Shown: one piece after another, positions 24,928 to 58,955 of the stretch
How positions within the stretch are numbered: the stretch's first letter is position 1
How the letters are laid out: each line of letters opens with the position of its first letter
Assembly (NCBI GenBank): GCA_964609855.1
Contig: CAZSTB010000003.1
Span: forward strand, 4,305-68,304
Direction of reading: 5' to 3'
From: an uncultured Bdellovibrionales bacterium
Lineage (GTDB): Bacteria > Patescibacteriota > Minisyncoccia > Moranbacterales > GWC2-37-73
DNA length: 64,000 nucleotides
The notes under the pieces: generated by a model
Database searches by the model: none
The model's input: only the letters and a program-made list of their open reading frames with translations
What the model was told of the DNA's origin: nothing
Program-made: the position numbers and the translations under genes

Positions 24928-26703
24928 CTAAAACTTTTGCTTCTCCCAAAGTTCATATAATCTACCTTTTGCCGCATATAGCTGCTCGAAATTTCCTGAT
25001 TCCAAAACCCTGCCTTTTTCAATCACTATGATTTTGTCCATTTCACGAATCGTTGTGAGTCTATGCGCAACAACGACCGCCGTAACTTTTTTGAGAAATT
25101 TATGCAGGGAATCCTTAATTTTCTCTTCCGATTCCATATCCAAGTGCGATGTAGCCTCATCCAAGAATAATATTTCCGGCTTTTTATAAACTGCCCGCGC
25201 AATCCCAAGGCGCTGTCTCTCGCCGCCTGAAAGCTTGACCCCTTTTTCACCGATAAAAGTTTCAAGTCCTAGTGGAAGTGTCTGCGCGAATTCTGCCACA
25301 TGCGCAATTTCCAGCGCTTTCAATAAGTCATTTTCACTGCGCTTTTTCGAACTGGCAATCGTAATATTTTCTCGCAGCGTAAAATTGAAAACTTCAGTAT
25401 CCTGCAGAACCACCCCGACATGGTCGAAATATGACTTCTTTCTGATTTTTTTCAATGAAAGATTGTCGAAAAGTATTTCGCCTGTGTAACTCTCATTCTC
25501 CTTGAGCAAAAGTTTCAGTAGTGTGGATTTTCCCGAACCGGAAAGACCAACTATTCCGATGCGCTCGCCTCTGTTTATCTCAAAAGAAATATTTTTTAAA
25601 ACTTTATTTTTTCCGTACGCGAAAGATAAATTCTTAACTGTCATTTTTTTCCAATCGGATGGTAAAGCAACTTTGTTCTTGTTGCTATCGATGGTAATTT
25701 TCTCATTCAAAGTTCTCTGCATTCTCGCAATCCCGTATTTGCGGATGATCAAATCCTGCATAGTATCTGACAATTCATCAACTGATTGAACCAGACTGTT
25801 AAAATATCCATGAAATAAAATCAGCACCCCAACTTCATACTGGCCCCTGGAAATTCCGTACACAATTAGAATCATTATCCCGATTCTAAATCCGGAAGAC
25901 CACAAATTCAATATTCCTGCTCGCGATTGAAAACGCAGAATCCTGTGCCTGATTTTCCCAAAAAGCTCATTAATTTGAACATTGATTATCTTTAATATTC
26001 GCTCTGTCATCGCGAGCACTTTCACGCTCCTGATATTATTGATTACCTGGAACATAAGGCCGGATATGCCCTCTTCCATAAGGTCGACTTCTTGAGAGAC
26101 TCGCACTGCTTTTTTCAACAAATAAAACGAGATGGCAAAGTAACTGAATAGAAAAATGAGCATCGATTCTCCCACTTGTCGATCAACTTTACTGAGAATG
26201 AAAATCATACCGACGAAATTCACACCGATCGAAATATAGTTATTAATCCACATCGCCAAAATGCGATAGATTCCATCAGAACCTTTCTGAATTCTCTTGA
26301 GCTTGTTTCCGGCATTTTCCTTTTCATGCCAAGCGATATCAAGAAATGAAAGTTGGCTGATCATTTTGACCTGAGAATCAAGTGCTACTCTTTCGGCAAC
26401 TTGATAGCCGACATACTTTGACATGTATTTGCAGACATGACCGACAATGTATGCCAAAGACAAGGCGGCAATAATTTTCCAGAAATATTCTAAGGAATCG
26501 CCTGGCTTAAATTTACTGAAAAAAGTCACAATCAGCGCAAATCCATAAACAGGAAAAAGATTTATCACATCGCTGATAAATCGCAGCAATGAAGCAATAA
26601 AAAAGCGCCATCTGTATGGTTTCAAAAATATTCCAATATCCCTTATCAGTTCTCGATTGGAATATTCAATAAAATCAGTTTTTACTTCTTTATTTTCTTT
26701 CAT
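24928..26703 (-). CDS. ABC transporter, fused permease/ATPase (type I exporter, MsbA-like)
   Basis: 6-TM domain followed by Walker A GLSGSGKST, LSGGERQRLGIARA and Walker B ILFLDEATS. Confidence 0.85.
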   Translation of the reverse strand: MKENKEVKTDFIEYSNRELIRDIGIFLKPYRWRFFIASLLRFISDVINLFPVYGFALIVTFFSKFKPGDSLEYFWKIIAALSLAYIVGHVCKYMSKYVGYQVAERVALDSQVKMISQLSFLDIAWHEKENAGNKLKRIQKGSDGIYRILAMWINNYISIGVNFVGMIFILSKVDRQVGESMLIFLFSYFAISFYLLKKAVRVSQEVDLMEEGISGLMFQVINNIRSVKVLAMTERILKIINVQINELFGKIRHRILRFQSRAGILNLWSSGFRIGIMILIVYGISRGQYEVGVLILFHGYFNSLVQSVDELSDTMQDLIIRKYGIARMQRTLNEKITIDSNKNKVALPSDWKKMTVKNLSFAYGKNKVLKNISFEINRGERIGIVGLSGSGKSTLLKLLLKENESYTGEILFDNLSLKKIRKKSYFDHVGVVLQDTEVFNFTLRENITIASSKKRSENDLLKALEIAHVAEFAQTLPLGLETFIGEKGVKLSGGERQRLGIARAVYKKPEILFLDEATSHLDMESEEKIKDSLHKFLKKVTAVVVAHRLTTIREMDKIIVIEKGRVLESGNFEQLYAAKGRLYELWEKQKF

Positions 26704-26907
26704 TTCTAAATTATACCATACTTCTTTCGTGTGCTGAAACTGTTGACTTCCAACTATTTTCTAATATCATATACAATCGGTATAGGAAATTTATCGATAA
26801 CATCCCCGATATCAAATGGAGCAAGCAGCAATTATCCCACCATGGAAACACGGCGGGATTTTTTATAATTAATTATTGCTTTCTAATTACAATTAAAGAG
26901 TTATTCA

Positions 26908-32393: not shown

Positions 32394-32597
32394 TTATTCT
32401 CGCTTGAAAGCTCCGACTGCAAAAATCAAATACAGACCAGCCAAACCTACAAGGTCATAAATCAATCGCGACAAAAGCGACATCTCCCCGAAAAGCTCTG
32501 CCACCAAATTGTAGTTGAATAGACCCACGAAACCCCAGTTTATTGCTCCCACAATCACTAAAACCATGGCAACCCAATCCAAAGCTGTTATTTTCAT
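32394..32597 (-). CDS. DUF378 family small membrane protein
   Basis: VLVIVGAINWGFVGLFNYNLVAELFG matches the DUF378 consensus. Confidence 0.55.
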   Translation of the reverse strand: MKITALDWVAMVLVIVGAINWGFVGLFNYNLVAELFGEMSLLSRLIYDLVGLAGLYLIFAVGAFKRE

Positions 32598-33925: not shown

Positions 33926-35128
33926 CTACTGCCTTATCAATGTGTTATACCTCTGGATGGTTTTATTGTAAAGCCCCACGATATCATTGAGTTTTTTTAC
34001 GTCTTTTTTATATTGCTCGAATAATTTATTATATTTTTCAACCAAGGCGTTATATTTTTCAAATTCTTGCCTTTTTTCATATTTATTCAGATCGTTTTTC
34101 CACTCAGTTAACTTTTCCTCGGCCGCAGCAACAATTTTCTTCTGTTCATTGATCATCGGCAATGTTTTCTCGAATGAAATTTTCAACTGATTTATTTCCG
34201 CGATTATCTTTTCAGTTTTTATGATGCCCAGATATTCCCTGCCTTCAGTTTTCTGCAAAATTACAACCTGACCCAACTGCCCGACAGCCGCCAAGTTCGC
34301 TTGATCCAAACTTAGTTCAGTCAATTTGGCGACATTTACAGTTTTATTGCTCGCAGAGTCGAAACTTGGAACAATCCCAATCTTATTTCCCTCCGCCGTG
34401 GTTTCGCTGTAGCAATAACCACTTCCATATGTTGAATTAGCTTTCGGACACTGAATTCCGATTGCCATATGATTATCATCCGGATATGTGAAGATTGCAG
34501 TTCCGTATCCCATAACCCTAAGCAAAGCAATTGCCAACAAACTCTTGTCGCTGCACACGCCCAACTGCTGAAAAAGAACTTCATAGGGATAACGCATCGT
34601 TTCATTGGAATTTTTAGCCAAAATATTTTCAGCTTTTGCATCGTCATACGGAATCGATTGCACGAATGCCATCGTCAAATCAACAAGCTCATCGTCAGTT
34701 AACTTTTGCTTAACGCCAAGCTGGCGAATTTTTTCCACCAGTTCAATAATCGTTTTATCCTCCTGATCGATCTTTAAAAAATTTCCATAATACTCCTCTT
34801 CCCAATTTTGTGGCAAAGTTCCCACATAGGAGAATGATTTAGGTTGATTTTTGTAAAATTCATTAACAGACTCATACAAATTCTCCGTAATTGAATATTT
34901 GACACCTTTATATTCCCATTGGTAAACGCGTTCCTTGGCGCCTTCTAATTGTGGGAAAGGCTTTTTAAAGATAATTTTCTCCGCCTCACCATCGGTAAAA
35001 TTTTCAATGACTGAAAAAACTTGCGATGAGGAAAGATTTCTTTTTTCAGCAATAAGCCAAAGTGCGCCTGCTATTAAAAGCAGCTCTAGGGAAATAATTA
35101 AAGTTTTTTTAAGCAAATTTTTCAGCAT
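33926..35128 (-). CDS. membrane-anchored protein with transglutaminase-like cysteine protease core and C-terminal coiled coil
   Basis: GVCSDKSLLAIALLRVMGY ... NHMAIGI ... (Cys/His/Asp arrangement of the transglutaminase-like fold); N-terminal TM. Confidence 0.4.
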   Translation of the reverse strand: MLKNLLKKTLIISLELLLIAGALWLIAEKRNLSSSQVFSVIENFTDGEAEKIIFKKPFPQLEGAKERVYQWEYKGVKYSITENLYESVNEFYKNQPKSFSYVGTLPQNWEEEYYGNFLKIDQEDKTIIELVEKIRQLGVKQKLTDDELVDLTMAFVQSIPYDDAKAENILAKNSNETMRYPYEVLFQQLGVCSDKSLLAIALLRVMGYGTAIFTYPDDNHMAIGIQCPKANSTYGSGYCYSETTAEGNKIGIVPSFDSASNKTVNVAKLTELSLDQANLAAVGQLGQVVILQKTEGREYLGIIKTEKIIAEINQLKISFEKTLPMINEQKKIVAAAEEKLTEWKNDLNKYEKRQEFEKYNALVEKYNKLFEQYKKDVKKLNDIVGLYNKTIQRYNTLIRQ

Positions 35129-35230
35129 ACAAGATAGTATTTTTTATTTTTCAAATGAGACCTCATGCACCTATGATTATACTACGCCCACCAATTTTTA
35201 GCACTAAATTTTAAAAATTGCAAAAGAAAA

Positions 35231-35267
35231 AAGGAGTATTCGCGGTTTACGAAAACTCCTTCTTTTG
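35231..35267. terminator. bidirectional intrinsic terminator (AAGGAGT...ACTCCTT flanked by A-run and T-run)
   Basis: stem 35231-35237 / 35255-35261 with an inner CGG/CCG extension; T-tract on the plus strand and U-tract on the minus transcript. Confidence 0.6.
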
Positions 35268-35375
35268 AATTGCTCTTTGTAAGAGCGGATACTCGCTTCC
35301 ATATCCTTTTTTAAAGATATGGATAGTTTATTGAATTGGATGAGGTCATCATACCAAAACAATTACTGTTAGCGA

Positions 35376-35609
35376 CTAGAGGTATGCACCCTTAACGGTT
35401 GAGCGCGGAAGTCCGGTGTTTTCAAGCTTTTCCGGATCCGAACTTGCAACCTGCGTCATGCTGAGCGGAGGTGCCGGTTGATCCTGACCATTTCTGCTCA
35501 GGCATTTTCCCTTTTCAAGTCCCGGGCATTTTCCATTGCTGCACTTTGTTTTGCAGCGTTCCTCTCCATAGCAGGATTTACAATCAAATTCCACAATATC
35601 TCTTTGCAT
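35376..35609 (-). CDS. small Cys-rich hypothetical protein (6 Cys in the first 36 aa)
   Basis: ATG preceded by SD AAAGGGGAT; GC-rich island; last gene of a 4-gene operon. Confidence 0.4.
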   Translation of the reverse strand: MQRDIVEFDCKSCYGEERCKTKCSNGKCPGLEKGKCLSRNGQDQPAPPLSMTQVASSDPEKLENTGLPRSTVKGAYL

Positions 35610-35627
35610 TTTTATCCCCTTTTTTTG

Positions 35628-35810
35628 CTATTGAACTCCCAGACCAAGATGTTTACGGATATTGTTTGCGTTGGTATTCAGCCAGCAAAAATCGTCCGCG
35701 CCCCTGCATCCGCTGAATAACCTTTCTATTCTCCGAAGCAATTTGCGTAGTTCGTGATCCGATTTTCCAGCCAAACTTACAATATTGCTTCTCGCCCTTT
35801 TCCTGATCAT
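35628..35810 (-). CDS. small basic hypothetical protein (~60 aa)
   Basis: ATG at 35808-35810 preceded by GGAGG with a 5-nt spacer; the ORF track begins at a TTG at 35822. Confidence 0.35.
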   Translation of the reverse strand: MIRKRARSNIVSLAGKSDHELRKLLRRIERLFSGCRGADDFCWLNTNANNIRKHLGLGVQ

Positions 35811-35830
35811 ATCCACCTCCAATTTTGAAT

Positions 35831-36097
35831 TTAGGCTGCCTCCCTTGAATTAAAATTTTCGCTCAACTGCTCAGGTGAAATCTTCTCCAACAACTCACGA
35901 GAAGGGTTCGCACTTTGCAGCATCCTTATTAGTGAATCATTGAGAAATACGTGTCCGCATCCGCAATCGAGTGTTTTTGTTATCAACTGCTCGGTGCGCA
36001 TGCGACTTTTGATATCTCCCGGGTGTGTCTTACCAAGTCGCTGAATCAACTGATGAAGCTTTCGTTTCAAAGCAACAGTTCTTTTCATATTCAGCAT
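35831..36097 (-). CDS. small hypothetical protein (88 aa), weak Spo0E-like helical resemblance
   Basis: ATG preceded by AAAGGGAGGAG; basic helical N-terminal half. Confidence 0.35.
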   Translation of the reverse strand: MLNMKRTVALKRKLHQLIQRLGKTHPGDIKSRMRTEQLITKTLDCGCGHVFLNDSLIRMLQSANPSRELLEKISPEQLSENFNSREAA

Positions 36098-36113
36098 GAC
36101 TCCTCCCTTTAGA

Positions 36114-36317
36114 TTATTTATTTTCCTGCATGCAGCGCAGCGCCTTAATCCTTGGATCCAGATATGTTTTCAAGATAAATGCATTTTGTTTCTCCACTTC
36201 TGACGACTCAGAAAATTCCATCACACTGACAGCATCGACGCGACATTTCTCCAGAACTTCAATGTCCTGCGTCTTCTCTGCAATCCGCTGAATCTCAAAC
36301 AGATCGATGTCTAGCAA
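36114..36317 (-). CDS. small acidic hypothetical protein (67 aa)
   Basis: TTG start preceded by a perfect SD AAGGAGGTG with a 7-nt spacer. Confidence 0.35.
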   Translation of the reverse strand: MLDIDLFEIQRIAEKTQDIEVLEKCRVDAVSVMEFSESSEVEKQNAFILKTYLDPRIKALRCMQENK

Positions 36318-36662
36318 ATCACACCTCCTTTTTAGTAAACCAAATTTTTAAAAAACTATCCTTATTATTATAAGCAAACAACTTGCAGCAAAATAAAAAA
36401 CCAGCTTTCGCTGGAATAATTTCAATACTACTTTTTGCTTAATTCTATGAAATATTACCCAACGAAAATTTGCCTCCGACGAGGAGAATAATGAGTCCAA
36501 ACAGGACAATCACAAATTTTTTTGTTGAGTTATTTTTCATATATCATCATTATAAACATTTTTCGCGGCCTGTCAATAACAATGAGCTTAGATAACATCT
36601 CGTATCTTGTATCGCGTATCTTGTATATCGTATTTTATACATTGCATTTATACACCATACAT

Positions 36663-36697
36663 AATACTAGATACTAGATACTAGATACTAGATACTT
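36663..36697. repeat. tandem heptamer repeat (TACTAGA)x4-5 downstream of paralog A
   Basis: atactagatactagatactagatactagatac. Confidence 0.85.
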
Positions 36698-36707
36698 TAT
36701 ACATGCA

Positions 36708-37835
36708 TCATTCCACACTTAATCCGCTCGGAGAAGCAGGAGCAACGACATCGAGAATGGAATCACTAGTAGTAATCACAACATCATCAATCTGCACAGG
36801 ATAACTGACATTCTCAGTGTACAAATGTGAACCCACATGATGATTATCCATTAATTCAACATAGTTCCAACCATTTTCAACACTTCCTCCTGACATGACA
36901 AATTCCATATTTGTCTTGTAGAACATGCGCACATCGTCCAAACTAACCTCTTGAATTCCATCTGCTGCGCCTGGTGCGGAATTCATTTTTACATGATAGG
37001 TATATTTATGCCATTCTCCATCCATCCTGATAGTGTCTACAACAGGATTACTGGAGGGCAGTGCATATGTATAACGATTATTTAAGAGGATATTCTGATA
37101 AGGATAATAACTGCTACTATTATACCAAGCATCCACGGTTTCATCATAAACTTCAGGAGTTCCATTTGAAGTTTGCGAACGGTTGTAATACTGCATAAAA
37201 TAAGGCCTGCTAGAATAAAAGCTTCCCATGTGTGGCAGCCACGCAGGGTGTGTAGGCCTAGCCTCAACCGAATGATCATCCGCCAAGGATGTTGAAACGG
37301 TCAACTCGCCATTAAACCTGGCGATATAAAAAGCCTTCGTTATACCGGAATAATTAATGTCAGACCCATCCCACCAATCCATATCACTTGGATATTTCAC
37401 CCACATCTCCACCCAAAGCTCAGGATATCCCGCTTCGCCGAAGTACATCGTAAGGGGACTGCCTCCAGCCCACCCAGTACTATATGTAGGATTACCCTTG
37501 GCTGATTCAAAATTGTAAGTCAAACCTCTTGAGCTTTCTCTACCTTGTCTCGCTCCAATAGTAGCCATTGGGCCTTGAGAAACTGCAAGAGTTGAAGGCG
37601 AAGTTCTGACCCATGAATTGGGATGCAACCACTGCCCATTCATCTTTTTGGGAGGATCCAGAGTTCTTGATGGATTGCCCGTCCAAGCATTAGGAAAACC
37701 ATTTGATATCCTAGGCGCAGACCAGTCAGCCGCATCTTCAAAGTTAGTCTCCCAAACAACAGCTGCATTTGCAAAATTTTGCAGCATGAAAAATATTGCA
37801 AGTAGGAAGAAAAATTTTAGAATTTGTTTTTGCAT
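36708..37835 (-). CDS. secreted beta-rich (jelly-roll/concanavalin-like?) protein, paralog A; C-terminus ...APASPSGLSVE
   Basis: signal peptide MQKQILKFFFLLAIFFMLQNFANA; shared motifs HVKMNSAPGAADG and LDDV; TGA stop directly after the conserved C-terminal motif. Confidence 0.6.
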   Translation of the reverse strand: MQKQILKFFFLLAIFFMLQNFANAAVVWETNFEDAADWSAPRISNGFPNAWTGNPSRTLDPPKKMNGQWLHPNSWVRTSPSTLAVSQGPMATIGARQGRESSRGLTYNFESAKGNPTYSTGWAGGSPLTMYFGEAGYPELWVEMWVKYPSDMDWWDGSDINYSGITKAFYIARFNGELTVSTSLADDHSVEARPTHPAWLPHMGSFYSSRPYFMQYYNRSQTSNGTPEVYDETVDAWYNSSSYYPYQNILLNNRYTYALPSSNPVVDTIRMDGEWHKYTYHVKMNSAPGAADGIQEVSLDDVRMFYKTNMEFVMSGGSVENGWNYVELMDNHHVGSHLYTENVSYPVQIDDVVITTSDSILDVVAPASPSGLSVE

Positions 37836-37951
37836 TTCTTAATTAAGCCATTTTTATTATTGTTTCGCGTTTAACGTTACAAACCCTTATGAACTCGTAA
37901 CTTTTATATATTTTCTATTTTTGCGTTTATACTTAATAACTCATACATGCA

Positions 37952-39028
37952 TCATTCCACTCCTAATCCTGTCGGTGCTGCAGGAGCAGCGGAATCAAAC
38001 AGACCTATCACATAATCAGGAGCAAGTTGGGTTGTAGATACTACAAAGTCATCGAGTCTCATCTGATGATGAAGTGTATCAGAATCATAATAATTAGAGG
38101 TGCCAGCCATCGCCATATTGCCGAATAATACGGCGGAGTTTATTTTCCTGGTCAGATCAGTCACCACTATCTGGTCATAATATCCCCATGATGCTACAGC
38201 AGGATTATATGACGCCATATTGTTATCTGGAATTATCCACGCCTCAACGATACCGTCTGAATTTGGGGTGCTGTCCGTAAAAGTGTTCAACTTTATATGG
38301 AATTGAACAAAATTCCAATGTCCCACAACATATGCGTAGTTAGTCGCAGATGGAGAATATCCGCCGTGAGTCCAAGCATAATCACCTGAATTTGGACAAC
38401 CAACAACTCCATTGCTAGGGCCAAATATTCCCAGATAAATTCTCCAGACACCATTTCCATCAGTTACCAATTCGAAATATTGTTGCTGTCCTCTTTTATA
38501 CCCAAATTCATCGCATGTACTGTTGGGATTTTCAGTAGCAATATTGACTCCCGTATTGGAATGCATAATTTTCCAGGGACTCATGCCCGCACCTGGATTG
38601 AAGTCAGCAGGAACATACAGCCATGATTGGTACCAAATTTCATCATAGCCCGACGTTCTTCCATTACTCAAAATCAAATCGAATGACCCACCATTGATGT
38701 ACTGACTATATTCATAATCAGCAGCTAGCGATTTTCCCGAGTTGCCATGATAAACATTTTGGTCGATAGAATATAAGGGAGGAGTTAGCGCATTGCTTCC
38801 AGCTCCCTGCGCCCACGAATACCAGCAAGGCAAGTTTGTTTCATAATCACAAGGTCCGCTTGGCATATCACCGATAGTGCTGGGCCAATCATGGCTCAAA
38901 TTATCCGAAGTGCTTTGCCACGTATAGGAATTGAAGTTATCCTCAAAAACAATTGCGGCCTGAGAAAAACCAGGCACCGCAAAAAATATCGCGAGCAGTA
39001 AGAAAAATTTTAGAATTTGTTTTTTCAT
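37952..39028 (-). CDS. secreted beta-rich protein, paralog B; C-terminus ...APAAPTGLGVE
   Basis: likely start MKKQILKFFLLLAIFFAVPGFSQA at ATG 39026-39028 (the ORF track extends to a TTG at 39070); family motifs; TGA stop. Confidence 0.6.
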   Translation of the reverse strand: MKKQILKFFLLLAIFFAVPGFSQAAIVFEDNFNSYTWQSTSDNLSHDWPSTIGDMPSGPCDYETNLPCWYSWAQGAGSNALTPPLYSIDQNVYHGNSGKSLAADYEYSQYINGGSFDLILSNGRTSGYDEIWYQSWLYVPADFNPGAGMSPWKIMHSNTGVNIATENPNSTCDEFGYKRGQQQYFELVTDGNGVWRIYLGIFGPSNGVVGCPNSGDYAWTHGGYSPSATNYAYVVGHWNFVQFHIKLNTFTDSTPNSDGIVEAWIIPDNNMASYNPAVASWGYYDQIVVTDLTRKINSAVLFGNMAMAGTSNYYDSDTLHHQMRLDDFVVSTTQLAPDYVIGLFDSAAPAAPTGLGVE

Positions 39029-39046
39029 TAAATACCTAAAAATCTT

Positions 39047-39068
39047 GTTACGTAGCATGCTACGTAAC
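39047..39068. promoter_or_regulatory. perfect 22-bp palindrome GTTACGTAGCATGCTACGTAAC 19-40 nt upstream of the paralog B start
   Basis: self-complementary sequence; a related palindrome is upstream of paralog D. Confidence 0.6.
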
Positions 39069-39233
39069 AACTCGCTAATTTTTATCTTATAATTATACCA
39101 CTTTTTATTGGTATTTCGTATTTCTTATACTTAACATTACAAACCTTATGAACTTGCAACGTTATAAACTTTTATGTATTTTGCATTTTTGAATTTATAC
39201 TTCATACATAATACCAAATACTTTATACTAAAG

Positions 39234-40295
39234 TTATTCCACCCCCAATCCTGTCGGTGCGGCCGGTGCAGTAATATCAGCCGTGCCAATGATATAATCT
39301 TTTCCAATAAAAGAATCACTAATCACAAAATCATCCAAAAATATTTTCATCTCCGTGTTCTCGTAGATGGTTCCTGTTTGATTTATGGTTATGTTATCCA
39401 GTGCATTGACCCAATTCCAACCAGGAGAAAGGCCATTTACTGAATCGGCGCCGACCCAAGCAAGCCCAGTCCGCTTATGATGCTGGTAAGAATTTATGCC
39501 ATCATCAACCCACACCTCCCATTCGCCATCCGCAACGCCCGGCGCGCTGTTCATCTTTACTCTGAATTCATAACTATGCCAACCACCATCCGATGGCATT
39601 GGCAGAGTATAAAAATCTTCCGCCGAAGCATCGCCAGCGCCAGGATCAAAAACGCGCGCGCCAAGAAAATGGACAGCATTGAGATCTGGCGGATTTTGAT
39701 AACCAGTGCCCGTGTTTACTGCAACCTCAGGATAGAAAGTTGGCGCCTGATAACTGGGAGCTAAAAATTGCTGCGGATTATTTACCAAGGATGGCTCCAG
39801 TTGATATCTGGAAATCCTGGCAATCTTATGATAATTCCCATTATTAATGCCTTCATTATTTATAGTCGGCCAATGAAAAGTTACTGGATCATATTTGTAA
39901 TATCCCCGCATATATAATTCTTGATATCCAGCATTTCCAAGATATAAATCCAGACCACCTCCCGCCCAGGTATGTACAGCCTCAACTGCAAAGGTGATGC
40001 CTTTTCCGGAATTTCGAGCGCCGCCAGCATCCAATTTCCAAGTTGGACCCCTGTCCCATCTTGGAATAGCTGCACTGTAAGCAGTCCAATTTTGCGGTGG
40101 GGGCTGACTTGGACCGCCTGGTTTATCTTTCCAGGTATTTGGCCAACCAGCGTTCGTGCTCGGATAAGACTCCGCCGATTGCCAATCGGGAGAGTCATTG
40201 AAATTATCCTCAAAGATAATTGCGGCCTGGGAAAAATTTGGCAGCAAGAAAAACATCGCGAGAAAAAGAAAAGTTTTCAGCATTTGCTTTATCAT
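39234..40295 (-). CDS. secreted beta-rich protein, paralog C; C-terminus ...APAAPTGLGVE
   Basis: signal peptide; EFRVKMNSAPGVADGEWEVWVDDG; TAA stop after the motif. Confidence 0.6.
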   Translation of the reverse strand: MIKQMLKTFLFLAMFFLLPNFSQAAIIFEDNFNDSPDWQSAESYPSTNAGWPNTWKDKPGGPSQPPPQNWTAYSAAIPRWDRGPTWKLDAGGARNSGKGITFAVEAVHTWAGGGLDLYLGNAGYQELYMRGYYKYDPVTFHWPTINNEGINNGNYHKIARISRYQLEPSLVNNPQQFLAPSYQAPTFYPEVAVNTGTGYQNPPDLNAVHFLGARVFDPGAGDASAEDFYTLPMPSDGGWHSYEFRVKMNSAPGVADGEWEVWVDDGINSYQHHKRTGLAWVGADSVNGLSPGWNWVNALDNITINQTGTIYENTEMKIFLDDFVISDSFIGKDYIIGTADITAPAAPTGLGVE

Positions 40296-40476
40296 TTCTT
40301 AATTATACCACTTTTTATTGGTATTTCCTATTTCGTATTTGGTATCTCGTATCTTATATATTGTACTCGTGTTTTGTATTCAACTTTATGAATCTTACGA
40401 ACTTTATAAGCTTTCTTGCATTCTACATCTTTTGTATTTATACATCATACATAATACTAGATACTTTATACTTGAG

Positions 40477-41688
40477 TCACTCCACACTTAGTCCAGTTGG
40501 CACAGCGGGGGCAATAATATCAGCCTCTAAATTACCAATAACATAATCAAAAGGCAACCTACCATCTTGCGGGGAATTGGACCAAAGAGCCGGCTCTGTC
40601 TGAATAGAATCGGCACTCAAAGGTTCATAGGCGATAACTGGGCCGTAATAAATCTGTTGAGCCCCATCATAAAAGCGGCTCATATTGTCAGGCATCCAGA
40701 TGTTATTCCATTCCGGCGTGGCATGCAGAGCTCCAGTATTTAGCCATGGAATATCAACTGTTTTGTAGTGAGTCCAAGTTGTTCCAACTTCAGTACTATT
40801 ATCAATCCACATCTCAAATTCGCCGTCCATGACGCCTGGTGCACTATTCATCTTTACGCGATATTCCAAAGTGTGCCAATCACCGTCTTCTGGGAGATAT
40901 GGCCCAGGATTACCCCCAAGGGTTGGGTTATAGCCATCGTAAGGAGCATATCTATATTCAGGATCGACACGAAAAGTAACCTTAGCTGCTGTATTTTTCC
41001 TGTACGTTATTGGGTTAGCATAATAATAGTAAGGATTTTCCAAAGTGTCAGGAATTGCAATCGGCATAGTATAACAAGTCGGATTCGAAGGTTGAGTATT
41101 GCATCCTTGAGTATTAAACATACTTTCAACAGAAGGATTGGCCCAAAAGCGCCCTATCCTTATATTCTTTATCATACTAATCTGATTTCCAGTTGAGACT
41201 CCTGGTCCGCATCCTGGACAATCAGCCCATTGTCAAACGGGTCCAAACTTAACTTTCATGCGCACATACATCTCATGATATCCTTCAACCTTAGGAAATA
41301 ATTTTCCCATCCTTGCCCCATGCCACGCTCCATAATCCCCTTCAGTCACAACACTGTAAATCAAACATTTTTCTTGATTAATGACAGAAGGATCGCTGCA
41401 ATTTACATTGTTAGCAATATTCAATGGCGAGATGGTAGTAGCCTCATTAGCAAACCCCGTCCAACCCGAAGGAGGACAGCTAGTGCTACATGTTCCGCCC
41501 TGATCAGCTGCAAAACTGATTGGCCAATCATGTTGAGTTATCCCAGAACTCCAATCAGGCGTGTCCTGCCAACCTTCTTCAAAAAAAACAGGCTTAGGCG
41601 GATTAGCCGTTGGAATAGCGTAAGCAAAATTTGGTAACATGAAAAATGCAGCAAGAAATAAATATAATTTTAAATTCATATTTTTCAT
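40477..41688 (-). pseudogene. secreted beta-rich protein, paralog D, interrupted by one in-frame TGA (41233-41235); C-terminus ...APAVPTGLSVE
   Basis: ORFs 41233-41694 and 40477-41175 are in the same frame, separated only by a TGA; the N-terminal part has the signal peptide and the C-terminal part has the family motifs. Confidence 0.55.
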
Positions 41689-41704
41689 ATTCAATTTCCT
41701 AAAT

Positions 41705-41889: not shown

Positions 41890-42573
41890 TTATTCCAAAA
41901 TCCCATCAAGATTCACGTCATATAACATCGCTTCTGAAATTGATTTGTATTTGATTATTTCGCTTTCATCAAACCAGATCTTGATTTCCCTCTCAGCTTC
42001 TTCCGGTTTGTCTGAGCAGTGAATTAAGTTTCGAACTGCGCGGCTATCCATTCCAGCAAGATCATAGGAATCTAGAGTCAGATCTCCGCGGATTGTTCCG
42101 ATGTCGGAAGTCAAAGGCTCGGTTCCACCTACAAGTTTAGTCACAATTCCCACAGCGGAATTACCCTCGATCACCATGGCAAGAACTGGTCCGGAAGTCA
42201 TGAAAGTCACCAACTGTCCGATAATGTCGCGGCCGTATTCAATTGCTTCTTTTTCAATCGGAAGATTCATCTCTTCGCGTCCTTTCACGATTCTCTCCCC
42301 TTTTAATTGGAACCACGCCTCGTCTTTGTTGTAGTGAGTCCAGCATTGCTCTGTTTTTGGAACCAACATTTTCATTGCTGTCATCTTGAGCCCTACTCTT
42401 TCAAAACGACTGATAATTTCTCCCATCAGATTTCGCTGAATTCCGTCCGGCTTAATAATAACGAATGTCCTCTCCTTTTTTGGATGTTGCATCTTATTTT
42501 TTATTAAATAATTACTAAAAAAGCGACTCTTAGTCGTAAATCTAGTATACAGCAAAAACATGGCAGGACGCAA
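41890..42573 (-). CDS. ndk: nucleoside diphosphate kinase (with internal insertion; likely start at MQHPKK)
   Basis: ERTFVIIKPDG ... NLIHCSD catalytic His motif ... ; longer than canonical Ndk because of an insertion and an N-terminal ORF extension. Confidence 0.75.
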   Translation of the reverse strand: MRPAMFLLYTRFTTKSRFFSNYLIKNKMQHPKKERTFVIIKPDGIQRNLMGEIISRFERVGLKMTAMKMLVPKTEQCWTHYNKDEAWFQLKGERIVKGREEMNLPIEKEAIEYGRDIIGQLVTFMTSGPVLAMVIEGNSAVGIVTKLVGGTEPLTSDIGTIRGDLTLDSYDLAGMDSRAVRNLIHCSDKPEEAEREIKIWFDESEIIKYKSISEAMLYDVNLDGILE

Positions 42574-45133: not shown

Positions 45134-45589
45134 CTATCGGGAAATCCCAGTAAGAAATGCGGGCGCATTTGATCTCAAACTGCCGCCCAGCCAAAACCAG
45201 CCGCGATAAAGGTTTAGTCCCTTATCTAAAAACGGAACCCTGATTTGATGGTCCGGTCTTCTGACAGCATCCTTCCAGCCTATCACTCTCTTCCCCTTGA
45301 AATACTTGTCATGAAAGGAGTTTCCTCTAAATTCGATAGCGATTATCTCAGCCAGACCTAAGCAGTGCGGCAACAGATTCTCGTCCTGCAATTTTTCATA
45401 AAATTCGACTCCCGGAACAAACTCCCTACCCCGATTGAGACGTGACCATTCAATTAGTTGTGCCACATCCAACAGATATGATTCCTTTGTTGGCGGTTCA
45501 GAATAAACCTTGGCCTCAAGAAAATGTGCATATTGGGCCGCTATCGCTACCGGGAAACATTCCACAACTGAATCGCTTTTTTCGTTCAT
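45134..45589 (-). CDS. hypothetical protein, GC-richer cassette with strong SD
   Basis: ATG preceded by AAAAGGAGAGG; G+C visibly higher than neighbours; no family recognised. Confidence 0.45.
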   Translation of the reverse strand: MNEKSDSVVECFPVAIAAQYAHFLEAKVYSEPPTKESYLLDVAQLIEWSRLNRGREFVPGVEFYEKLQDENLLPHCLGLAEIIAIEFRGNSFHDKYFKGKRVIGWKDAVRRPDHQIRVPFLDKGLNLYRGWFWLGGSLRSNAPAFLTGISR

Positions 45590-58487: not shown

Positions 58488-58742
58488 CTATTTTTCCATT
58501 TTACGCTTGATGTTTTTCAAAGCTTCATCATCGAATTTTCCAAGTTTTTTCAACTTATCAATTTCTTTGCGAATTTTAACTTTATATAGAGCTTCGTCGC
58601 GTTTTTCAGTCTTGCTTTTCTCATCGTTTCTGAATCTTGTTCTGCGAGCTCTCACTAAAACACCACTTTGCTGAATTTTACGAGAAAATCTTCGCATTAA
58701 GCTTTCAGTAGTTTCTTTGTCTTTTTTCTTAACCTCAATCAT
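58488..58742 (-). CDS. rpsU: 30S ribosomal protein S21
   Basis: MIEVKK ... SLMRRFSRKIQQSGVLVRARR; basic, 84 aa. Confidence 0.7.
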   Translation of the reverse strand: MIEVKKKDKETTESLMRRFSRKIQQSGVLVRARRTRFRNDEKSKTEKRDEALYKVKIRKEIDKLKKLGKFDDEALKNIKRKMEK

Positions 58743-58955
58743 GTGAAAAACCTCCTTTCTATAGTTATTTCCTTATTATCCCCTAATCAATCATATTATA
58801 CAGATATTCGCAGATAAGTCAACTAGGTCAGCTTATTAGCTTTTTAGGCGTTAACTTCTTAGGTTTTTAACTTTCCGAAGAATAAAAAGCAGAGAGATTT
58901 ATAATCTACTATTTATCTCCTAAGAAGTTAAAAAGCTAATGCCTGACAAGCTATT

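Follow-up and report, generated by a model that had tools for sequence, protein, structure and literature searches.

The locus described here raises the question of how four very small genes are expressed, and where they came from, in DNA whose other genes almost never carry a Shine–Dalgarno (SD) sequence. It lies in a 64,000-nt stretch of contig CAZSTB010000003.1 (hereafter the window) and consists of four minus-strand open reading frames (ORFs): ORF67 (36317–36114, 67 aa, TTG start), ORF88 (36097–35831, 88 aa), ORF60 (35810–35628, 60 aa) and ORF77 (35609–35376, 77 aa). The original prediction, made from the letters of the window alone, was that this block is a horizontally acquired, Firmicute-like module of small proteins. 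The analysis below favours another answer, to which a probability of roughly 0.65 is given: a hypervariable small-protein operon of Candidatus Moraniibacteriota, a lineage of the candidate phyla radiation (CPR), that is translated from SDs and controlled by ribosome-mediated transcription attenuation.

The four genes are packed with 16–20 nt between neighbours (ORF listing of 34800–37000) and each is led by a strong SD, as first described and as the upstream sequences confirm. The SDs, all on the minus strand, are AAGGAGGTG (36330–36322) 4 nt 5' of the TTG of ORF67, GGGAGGAG (36107–36100) 3 nt 5' of the ATG of ORF88, GGAGGTG (35820–35814) 3 nt 5' of the ATG of ORF60, and AGGGGA (35620–35615) 5 nt 5' of the ATG of ORF77. 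For ORF88, gene callers choose an in-frame ATG (Met4) that gives a protein of 85 aa. The SD and the tight packing support ORF60 as a gene, and gene calling in two related loci (L002 and L003) likewise gives a product of 60 aa. The block is closed by an intrinsic terminator (35224–35267, minus), an interrupted 11+5-bp hairpin with a U-run. The hairpin terminator already recognized at this place (hairpin with T-run, 35227–35265) folds at −22.4 kcal/mol (z = −6.4).

A conserved slot in Moraniibacteriota

Relatives were sought with TG400, the 400-aa transglutaminase-like protein encoded downstream of the block (33926–35128, minus). TG400 consists of an N-terminal transmembrane helix, a transglutaminase-like core (DUF553/Transglut_core; Pfam match to DUF553, 1.5e-5) and a C-terminal coiled coil, and its gene has no SD. 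Searching species genomes with this protein returned only metagenome-assembled genomes of Candidatus Moraniibacteriota, in which tblastn detected none of the four ORFs and did detect a 31-aa ORF upstream of the block, the leader ORF. A metagenome scan with a TG400 alignment gave 30 further loci. The leader is present in 17 Moraniibacteriota loci, 13 found via TG400 and four independently via homologues of ORF77; all four of the ORF77-homologue contigs that were fetched (P0129, P0131, P0134 and P0136) have the homologue behind the same leader. Because the ORF77 search is independent of TG400, the linkage of leader and cassette is not an artefact of the search.

The position occupied by these elements, here called the slot, has a fixed order: promoter, leader ORF with attenuator, a cassette of SD-led small ORFs and, usually, TG400. 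L004 and L005 are examples: behind a promoter, a short ORF and a terminator hairpin come between one and four small SD-led ORFs, Cys-rich in some cases, and then a terminator and TG400. The cassette ranges from 1 to 8 genes across loci and its families combine freely. Of the 17 leader-bearing loci, 16 have TG400 behind the cassette and one, L042, has YgjP in its place. The block had been pictured as an island inserted into otherwise conserved synteny; comparison of presence and absence among relatives does not bear this out, since the slot itself is conserved and syntenic in the 17 loci and it is the payload that is replaced. Five further loci (L018, L019, L027, L035 and L012) have no detected leader and still contain one or two SD-led small ORFs 0.2–0.8 kb upstream of the TG400 homologue. 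The slot may be older than the leader family, or the covariance model may have missed diverged leaders.

The leader promoter and short ORF

A promoter matching the consensus at 12 of 12 positions lies upstream of the block (36576–36549, minus), with TTGACA (36576–36571) and TATAAT (36554–36549) separated by 16 nt. In a promoter scan it is the only good promoter on the minus strand within 35100–36720. Both hexamers are kept in relatives, and the distance from the −10 box to the leader ATG is 6–8 nt in every locus. As this ATG is only 8 nt past the −10 box in the window, the leader transcript is probably leaderless or nearly so. TATAAT is likewise found 6–8 nt 5' of the ATG of the genes at 39234–40295 and 24928–26703 (sites 40296–40320 and 26704–26728; that of the leader ORF is 36541–36554), and the recurrence of this arrangement at several first genes suggests that leaderless mRNAs may be common in this organism.

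The leader ORF (36445–36540, minus) has 31 codons, MKNNSTKKFVIVLFGLIILLVGGKFSLGNIS. It had been pointed out before as a hydrophobic peptide ORF sitting beside the block; the ORF is real, but it is no bystander, being a conserved leader ORF inside the attenuator RNA. The frame is open in 17 of 17 leaders, at 27–31 codons, with the positions of ATG and stop codon kept and all indels multiples of three. The other two frames are closed, and the chance of an open frame is 0.07–0.17 per sequence. The peptide is hydrophobic and conserved at both ends, M[KN]N[FY]STKF... and ...F[SL]LGN[IN][AS]*, within which synonymous changes (TTT/TTC, GGT/GGC) are observed.

Alternative folds of the leader RNA

The leader RNA (36394–36543, minus, about 150 nt) contains the closing helix P0, the hairpins P1a, P1b and P2 and a terminator/antiterminator switch. 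P1a (36507–36495, minus) and P1b (36486–36474, minus) lie inside the leader ORF, and P2, for which support is moderate, lies across the stop codon and draws region 2 towards region 3 (both defined below). The window leader matches covariance model R1 with 146.5 bits (E = 7e-24) and is found only once in the window by an nhmmer profile followed by the covariance model. Its minimum free energy (MFE) is −48.2 kcal/mol (z = −5.25). P0, P1a, P1b and the terminator are 90–92% paired with compensatory changes at 13 of 18 pairs, a result equalled in 0 of 500 shuffles, these counts being taken from an alignment fitted to that structure. Rfam gave no gathering-score match in the 64-kb window and nothing meaningful at E ≤ 5 in 35000–36900.

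The switch is formed by four regions, all on the minus strand. Region 1, the 5' strand of an anti-antiterminator (36513–36530), consists of ACUCAAC (36530–36524) and AAAAUUUG (36520–36513) and covers leader codons 4–10. Region 2 (36457–36467), UUUCGUUGGGU, covers codons 25–28 and can serve as the 5' strand of the antiterminator or as the 3' strand of a stalk formed with region 1. Region 3 (36415–36406), UCCAGCGAAA, is common to antiterminator and terminator, and in the latter it pairs with region 4. The attenuator terminator (36390–36415), identified by a terminator scan, has the stem-loop CCAGC-GAAA-GCUGG (36414–36401) followed by a U-run; its stem is 96–98% paired, and an A-U pair has become G-C in four sequences.

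From the alignment alone RNAalifold chose an 11-bp antiterminator helix, UUUCGUUGGGU with NCCAGCGAAA, the latter corresponding to the attenuator terminator's 5' arm plus its loop. On a model-based alignment made with a model that lacked this helix, it is 95.5% paired in 16 distinct sequences and 4 of its 11 pairs are compensatory (0 of 500 shuffles), against 37–60% for slid controls. In the MFE fold of the window, region 1 pairs with region 2 and with the 3' strand of P0, forming a stalk that is incompatible with the antiterminator. This stalk is 91.7% paired in 12 sequences, against 34–61% for slid controls, with one compensatory pair. Single-sequence MFE folds of 13 leaders split between stalk plus terminator (OFF) and antiterminator (ON), and E(ON)−E(OFF), calculated for the forced states, ranges from −3 to +8 kcal/mol.

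A model of attenuation

These elements suggest the following scheme. Transcription would start from the promoter at 36576–36549, essentially at the leader AUG. In the OFF fold regions 1 and 2 would close the stalk, capped by two hairpins, and region 3, left unpaired by it, would join region 4 in the terminator CCAGC-GAAA-GCUGG. With regions 2 and 3 paired instead in the 11-bp antiterminator (the ON fold), RNA polymerase would read into ORF67–ORF88–ORF60–ORF77. By analogy with known attenuators, a ribosome paused early in the leader ORF would hold region 1 and free region 2, giving ON; a ribosome reaching the stop codon would cover region 2, giving OFF; and if the ORF were not translated at all the stalk would form, again giving OFF. 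Sequence comparison shows the anatomy and its conservation, the mutually exclusive, covarying helices, the retained ORF, the SD bias and the replacement of cassettes; translation of the leader ORF from a leaderless AUG, and a ribosome that sets the switch in the direction given here, are what we infer. The payload would then be translated from its strong SDs, a mode used by almost no other gene here, and cassettes would be exchanged between relatives through recombination in the conserved flanks.

One related locus (L007; JAAXUC010000020.1, 6373–6546) is a natural deletion derivative of this arrangement. The deletion has joined its TTGACA promoter to aatttatgtaaaaat (P2, 3' strand) and has removed the leader ORF along with a functional terminator; the cassette with its SDs is kept behind the same promoter. 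L007 is predicted to be a constitutive variant.

Composition of the block and turnover of the cassette

The block is of atypical composition. Its G+C content is 44.5% against a window mean of 38.3%, at the 99.5th percentile of same-size windows, and the excess sits at third codon positions (GC3 0.46–0.50 against 0.346 ± 0.052, z = 2.2–2.95). The segment had thus been correctly singled out as GC-rich, but the 45–50% then estimated was too high, as only ORF77 (48.7%) among the block ORFs reaches such a value. The idea that the whole GC-rich block is a single large non-coding RNA was considered and discarded, since for three of the ORFs homology is seen at the protein level, with residues conserved, and the DNA of relatives at the same place is non-homologous.

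Replacement of the cassette is directly visible when close relatives are compared. The flanks of L004 and L009 are 84–93% identical in DNA, and their cassettes, of four and two unrelated genes, are non-homologous; homology is lost from the end of the leader terminator until about 130 nt short of TG400. L010 and L046 have four cassette genes in common at 86% identity and differ in the last gene. A different pattern is seen between the window and L002, a 97%-identical strain variant that exact-protein look-ups returned together with short Logan contigs of the same DNA as the window. The leader and island (1572 nt) show 3 substitutions, whereas the rate of TG400 would predict about 38 (P = 4e-13). 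The 296 island codons contain a single synonymous change, against 15 synonymous and 3 non-synonymous ones among 301 codons of TG400, and the flanks of the two strains differ by 2.4–6%. This low divergence, together with the raised GC3, fits a recent common origin of the segment, by recombination or a sweep.

The G+C content of the slot follows that of the host (0.34–0.48 for the slot, 0.33–0.44 for the rest of the locus). The core motif of the leader is absent from IMG/VR viral contigs, the only viral collection scanned, and no integrase, repeat, tRNA or transfer-messenger RNA was found at the block boundaries. Taken over the related loci, the slot is ancestral, with its content swapped as cassettes. 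Because slot composition tracks the host, the motif is missing from the viral contigs and the payload families are restricted to the phylum, the exchange is placed within the lineage and not from Firmicutes or phages; the label 'Firmicute-like' suits the use of SDs only, not the origin. The notion of horizontal acquisition agrees with the atypical GC3, the SD-led genes, the sharp boundaries and the exchangeable payload, but not with a slot, promoter and attenuator that are conserved in 17 loci.

Payload protein families

ORF77 represents family A and is the Cys-rich product remarked on earlier, with 6 Cys within residues 1–36. An exhaustive HMMER search of 1.84 billion representatives gave 8 small homologues (66–94 aa, E 1e-13 to 5e-4), which define the pattern C-x8-C-x3-C-x4-CPG-x4-G-x-C-L-S, QPAPP, a variable linker and a C-terminal T-x-KGAY[LFM]. 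More distant Cys-rich relatives are found in nine slots. One further candidate, the 1119-aa P0130, was rejected as a homologue because it is a multihaem cytochrome with CxxCH repeats. An AlphaFold model of ORF77 built with the 8 homologues has a predicted local distance difference test (pLDDT) score of 48 and is unusable. Family A proteins keep a nearly invariant Gln (in QPAPP) and Lys (in the KGAY tail); these as substrates of the adjacent transglutaminase-like protein are pure speculation, and the C-terminal hydrophobic-Tyr-X tail was considered as a docking or degradation signal.

As a single query against 5.8 billion protein clusters ORF88 matches only itself, but a profile search of the same clusters gave a family (B) of 7 members, all from Moranbacteria/Parcubacteria. 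It has an NLHNxLxKL-like motif, and its AlphaFold2 model is all-alpha with five helices (pLDDT 77) and has no Foldseek neighbour in the Protein Data Bank better than E = 1.8. ORF67, the first cassette gene, belongs to family C, homologues of which take the first cassette position in L010, L044 and L046 with 27–31% identity and 11 invariant columns. Families C and E align in hhalign with E = 0.004 and a probability of 9%. ORF60 is an orphan. ORF67, ORF88 and ORF77 belong to small, fast-evolving families that are restricted to Moranbacteria and turn up repeatedly at the slot.

Pfam, PHROGs, NCBIfam and PADLOC gave only sub-threshold noise for the four ORFs and the leader peptide, the only PADLOC match being a sub-threshold DpdH fragment on ORF60 (E = 0.0025). 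The faint Spo0E-like pattern once ascribed to one product finds no counterpart in Pfam, in which none of the four ORFs has a match at E ≤ 1. Among precursor families of ribosomally synthesized and post-translationally modified peptides (RiPPs) the best match is TIGR03892 (E = 0.32). As to a RiPP maturase, the adjacent TG400 has a transglutaminase-like core, and L042 lacks TG400; no cyclase, dehydratase or radical-SAM gene was found among the called flanking genes. No gene pair is kept together among cassettes, as would be expected of toxin and antitoxin. The proposal of a toxin/antitoxin, anti-defence or RiPP set is not sustained, there being no match to such families or to phage families.

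Alternative explanations

The attenuation model has been built wholly in silico, and several further observations weigh against it. No cognate-codon run is present in region 1 of the 17 leaders, whose peptides start M[KNS][NKH][FYN][SLP][TIRA]K(K)F; without a run for a single amino acid a ribosome-stalling signal is not evident, and this keeps alive both a sensor made of RNA only and an arrangement with no switch. The leader hairpins covary while the central part of the encoded peptide is not conserved, the hairpin counts come from the fitted alignment mentioned above, and the stalk is mostly invariant, its support coming from conservation and not from covariation. The distance between attenuator and first SD is about 70 nt in the window and includes a TATAAT with no good −35 box. 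A weak internal promoter is possible in this gap; the promoter scan of the window found no promoter-like site there. Among the payload genes, ORF60 has no homologue in the searches made and is unrelated to the family D and E profiles. An RNA-only sensor, that is a riboswitch or a protein- or tRNA-binding element, would use the three-way junction of P0, P1a and P1b to bind a ligand and stabilize either the stalk or the antiterminator, the ORF being incidental or secondary. The covarying hairpins that encode an unconserved stretch of peptide, the missing codon run and a junction next to an alternative terminator and antiterminator, the usual riboswitch layout, all suit such a sensor. It is nevertheless unlikely, given an ORF that keeps its start, frame and stop in every leader, peptide ends conserved across synonymous changes, an AUG placed as in leaderless mRNAs, few conserved unpaired junction nucleotides that could form a binding pocket, and no Rfam match. 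The 31-codon ORF could also be an independent gene for a micro-membrane protein with its own terminator, the four ORFs being expressed constitutively by leak-through or from a weak internal promoter. The hydrophobic peptide with conserved termini and the 70-nt gap with its TATAAT would be in keeping with this, but the conserved, covarying antiterminator overlaps the terminator arm and the two folds are close in energy. Moreover, in most relatives the first SD is 10–20 nt past the terminator U-run, which leaves no room for a second promoter. Constitutive expression of this kind is judged very unlikely.

The remaining alternative concerns the block and not its leader: a foreign island with a toxin/antitoxin, anti-defence or RiPP module, gained recently from a phage or from a GC-richer donor that uses SDs. 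The raised GC3, the atypical SD use, the single substitution in 296 island codons between strains with more divergent flanks, and the non-homologous cassettes of close relatives could all be read in this way. In favour, too, is the transglutaminase-like nature of TG400, a fold also found in lasso-peptide leader peptidases. Set against this, three of the four ORFs have homologues only in the slot and only in Moranbacteria, the conserved promoter and attenuator accompany the slot in 17 loci, slot composition tracks that of the host, the family databases gave no match, the leader motif is absent from IMG/VR, and the boundaries carry no integrase, repeat or tRNA. A foreign island is therefore highly improbable, and attenuation of an exchangeable, lineage-specific cassette is preferred.

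Shine–Dalgarno use and rpsU

SD use was surveyed for 71 genes on the minus strand of the window, over the 25 nt that precede each. The bias is plain: only 2–3 of the 67 genes outside the block have a comparable SD, and tuf, the ribosomal-protein genes and secY have none, as had been stated for tuf, rpsL, ftsA, rplB and secY. Among 253 ORFs of at least 150 aa in the window and 29 related loci the background is 4% for a strong SD and 8% on a lenient definition, rates that allow several start codons per ORF. In the slots, strong SDs precede the first ORF behind the leader and nearly all plausible small ORFs. Every called small cassette gene in L042, L044 and L046 has an SD; in L043, the clearest exception, one of the two cassette genes has one, the 103-aa first gene having none at its called start.

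Outside the block the SD-led genes include rpsU, which encodes bS21 (58488–58742, minus). It has a promoter at 58822–58793, a 5' untranslated region of about 45 nt and the SD AAAGGAGG 8 nt 5' of its ATG. This SD is kept as AAAGGGGG or AAAGGAGG in four other Moranbacteria (L038–L041, positions 980–1000), and the genes adjoining rpsU (HIT, YqeY and YbeY) have none. The gene for a DUF378 small membrane protein (32394–32597, minus) has the strong SD GGAGGTGA, and ORF151 (45134–45589, minus, 151 aa, no Pfam match) has AAAAGGAGAGG. Together with the four cassette genes, rpsU, DUF378 and ORF151 form a small SD-led class.

In Flavobacteriales bS21, bS18 and bS6 mask the anti-SD (ASD), and the one gene with an SD, rpsU, is autoregulated (PMC7797042, PMC9976891, PMC13000453). 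The present case resembles this SD-blind system of Flavobacteriales/Bacteroidia in combining a nearly SD-free genome with a strong, conserved SD at rpsU. It differs in that rpsU is essentially the sole SD gene in Flavobacteriales, whereas here the cassette genes, DUF378 and ORF151 are also SD-led. Parcubacteria often lack both bS21 and the ASD motif (PMC9297842); the 64-kb window contains no rRNA gene. As far as was found, the rpsU SD signature has not been reported in CPR in the literature searched.

By analogy, the SD-led cassette and rpsU might constitute a specialized-ribosome regulon. With the ASD normally masked by bS21, SD-bearing mRNAs would be read mainly by ribosomes free of bS21, the leaderless leader ORF would sense ordinary translation (SD-blind, 70S-type initiation, and elongation), and the attenuator would open when this falters, routing the payload to the alternative ribosome pool. 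Such a regulon is distinctly unlikely. If it did exist, it would amount to a two-layer sensor of translational state placed over hypervariable small proteins, possibly factors that interact with ribosomes or hosts. The SD-led minority with rpsU extends to CPR a phenomenon known only from Bacteroidia and makes SD-blindness in CPR directly testable.

Comparison with known systems

The proposed switch resembles the trp, his, leu, thr, pheA and ilv attenuators, and those of ABC-F, erm and cat genes, in its leader ORF, its alternative pairings (3:4 with a putative 1:2, against 2:3) and an intrinsic terminator placed directly before the structural genes. As in the classical attenuators, region 1 lies inside the ORF and region 2 within the ribosome footprint of the stop codon. 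Unlike them, the leader has no cognate-codon run, its ORF is apparently leaderless, two extra covarying hairpins lie inside the ORF, and the lineage is a CPR one. The classical systems control biosynthetic or resistance genes, whereas the genes here encode hypervariable small proteins. Leaderless polycysteine short ORFs of mycobacteria are reported to act as cysteine-responsive attenuators (bioRxiv 10.1101/834739). They similarly constitute a leaderless first cistron of a polycistronic mRNA that controls downstream genes of the operon, but they have runs of Cys codons and Cys-related genes, where the present leader has no codon run and an explicit terminator/antiterminator pair.

The cassette, for its part, is reminiscent of bacteriocin/immunity, capsule and pilin-type loci, with a conserved regulatory 5' flank and 3' gene, a non-homologous interior and single-gene swaps (L010 against L046). 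The likeness is population-genetic only; searching turned up no recombinase, attC-like repeats, signal peptides, double-glycine leaders or immunity-like membrane proteins. Hypervariable cassettes beside a conserved transglutaminase-like membrane protein are relevant to host-attached life, in that loci of this type often mark interfaces of conflict or interaction. CPR bacteria (Patescibacteria) make up a large share of bacterial diversity and are thought to live attached to hosts. To our knowledge, almost nothing is known of their gene regulation.

The type of mechanism is thus a known one. Neither Rfam 15, Pfam nor the literature searched describes this leader family, with covarying hairpins inside its leaderless ORF, or its presence in CPR, and the same holds for the variable payload led by SDs and the accompanying SD of rpsU. 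The element is a testable cis-regulatory RNA of about 150 nt that is absent from Rfam and appears to couple leaderless translation to transcription termination.

The flanking region

Two tandem arrays of 7-nt units lie just upstream of the leader promoter, where repeats had rightly been noticed: an ATCTCGT-like unit repeated five times (36597–36633) and ATACTAG repeated 4.7 times (36664–36696). The strain variant L002 lacks exactly three ATACTAG units (21 nt). The arrays may be a slippage-prone spacer or a binding array beside the promoter.

Further upstream, ndk directly precedes the leader in L004, L005, L007 and L046. In the window about 5 kb of paralogous genes (36708–41694, minus) separate ndk (41890–42573) from the leader promoter. 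Relative to other Moranbacteria, it is this neighbouring paralog array that is the local lineage-specific insertion. The three paralogs nearest the leader (375, 372 and 353 aa) have signal peptides and no Pfam domains. The one adjacent to the leader is the most divergent gene between the window and L002, differing by 6% with 21 non-synonymous and 36 synonymous codon changes.

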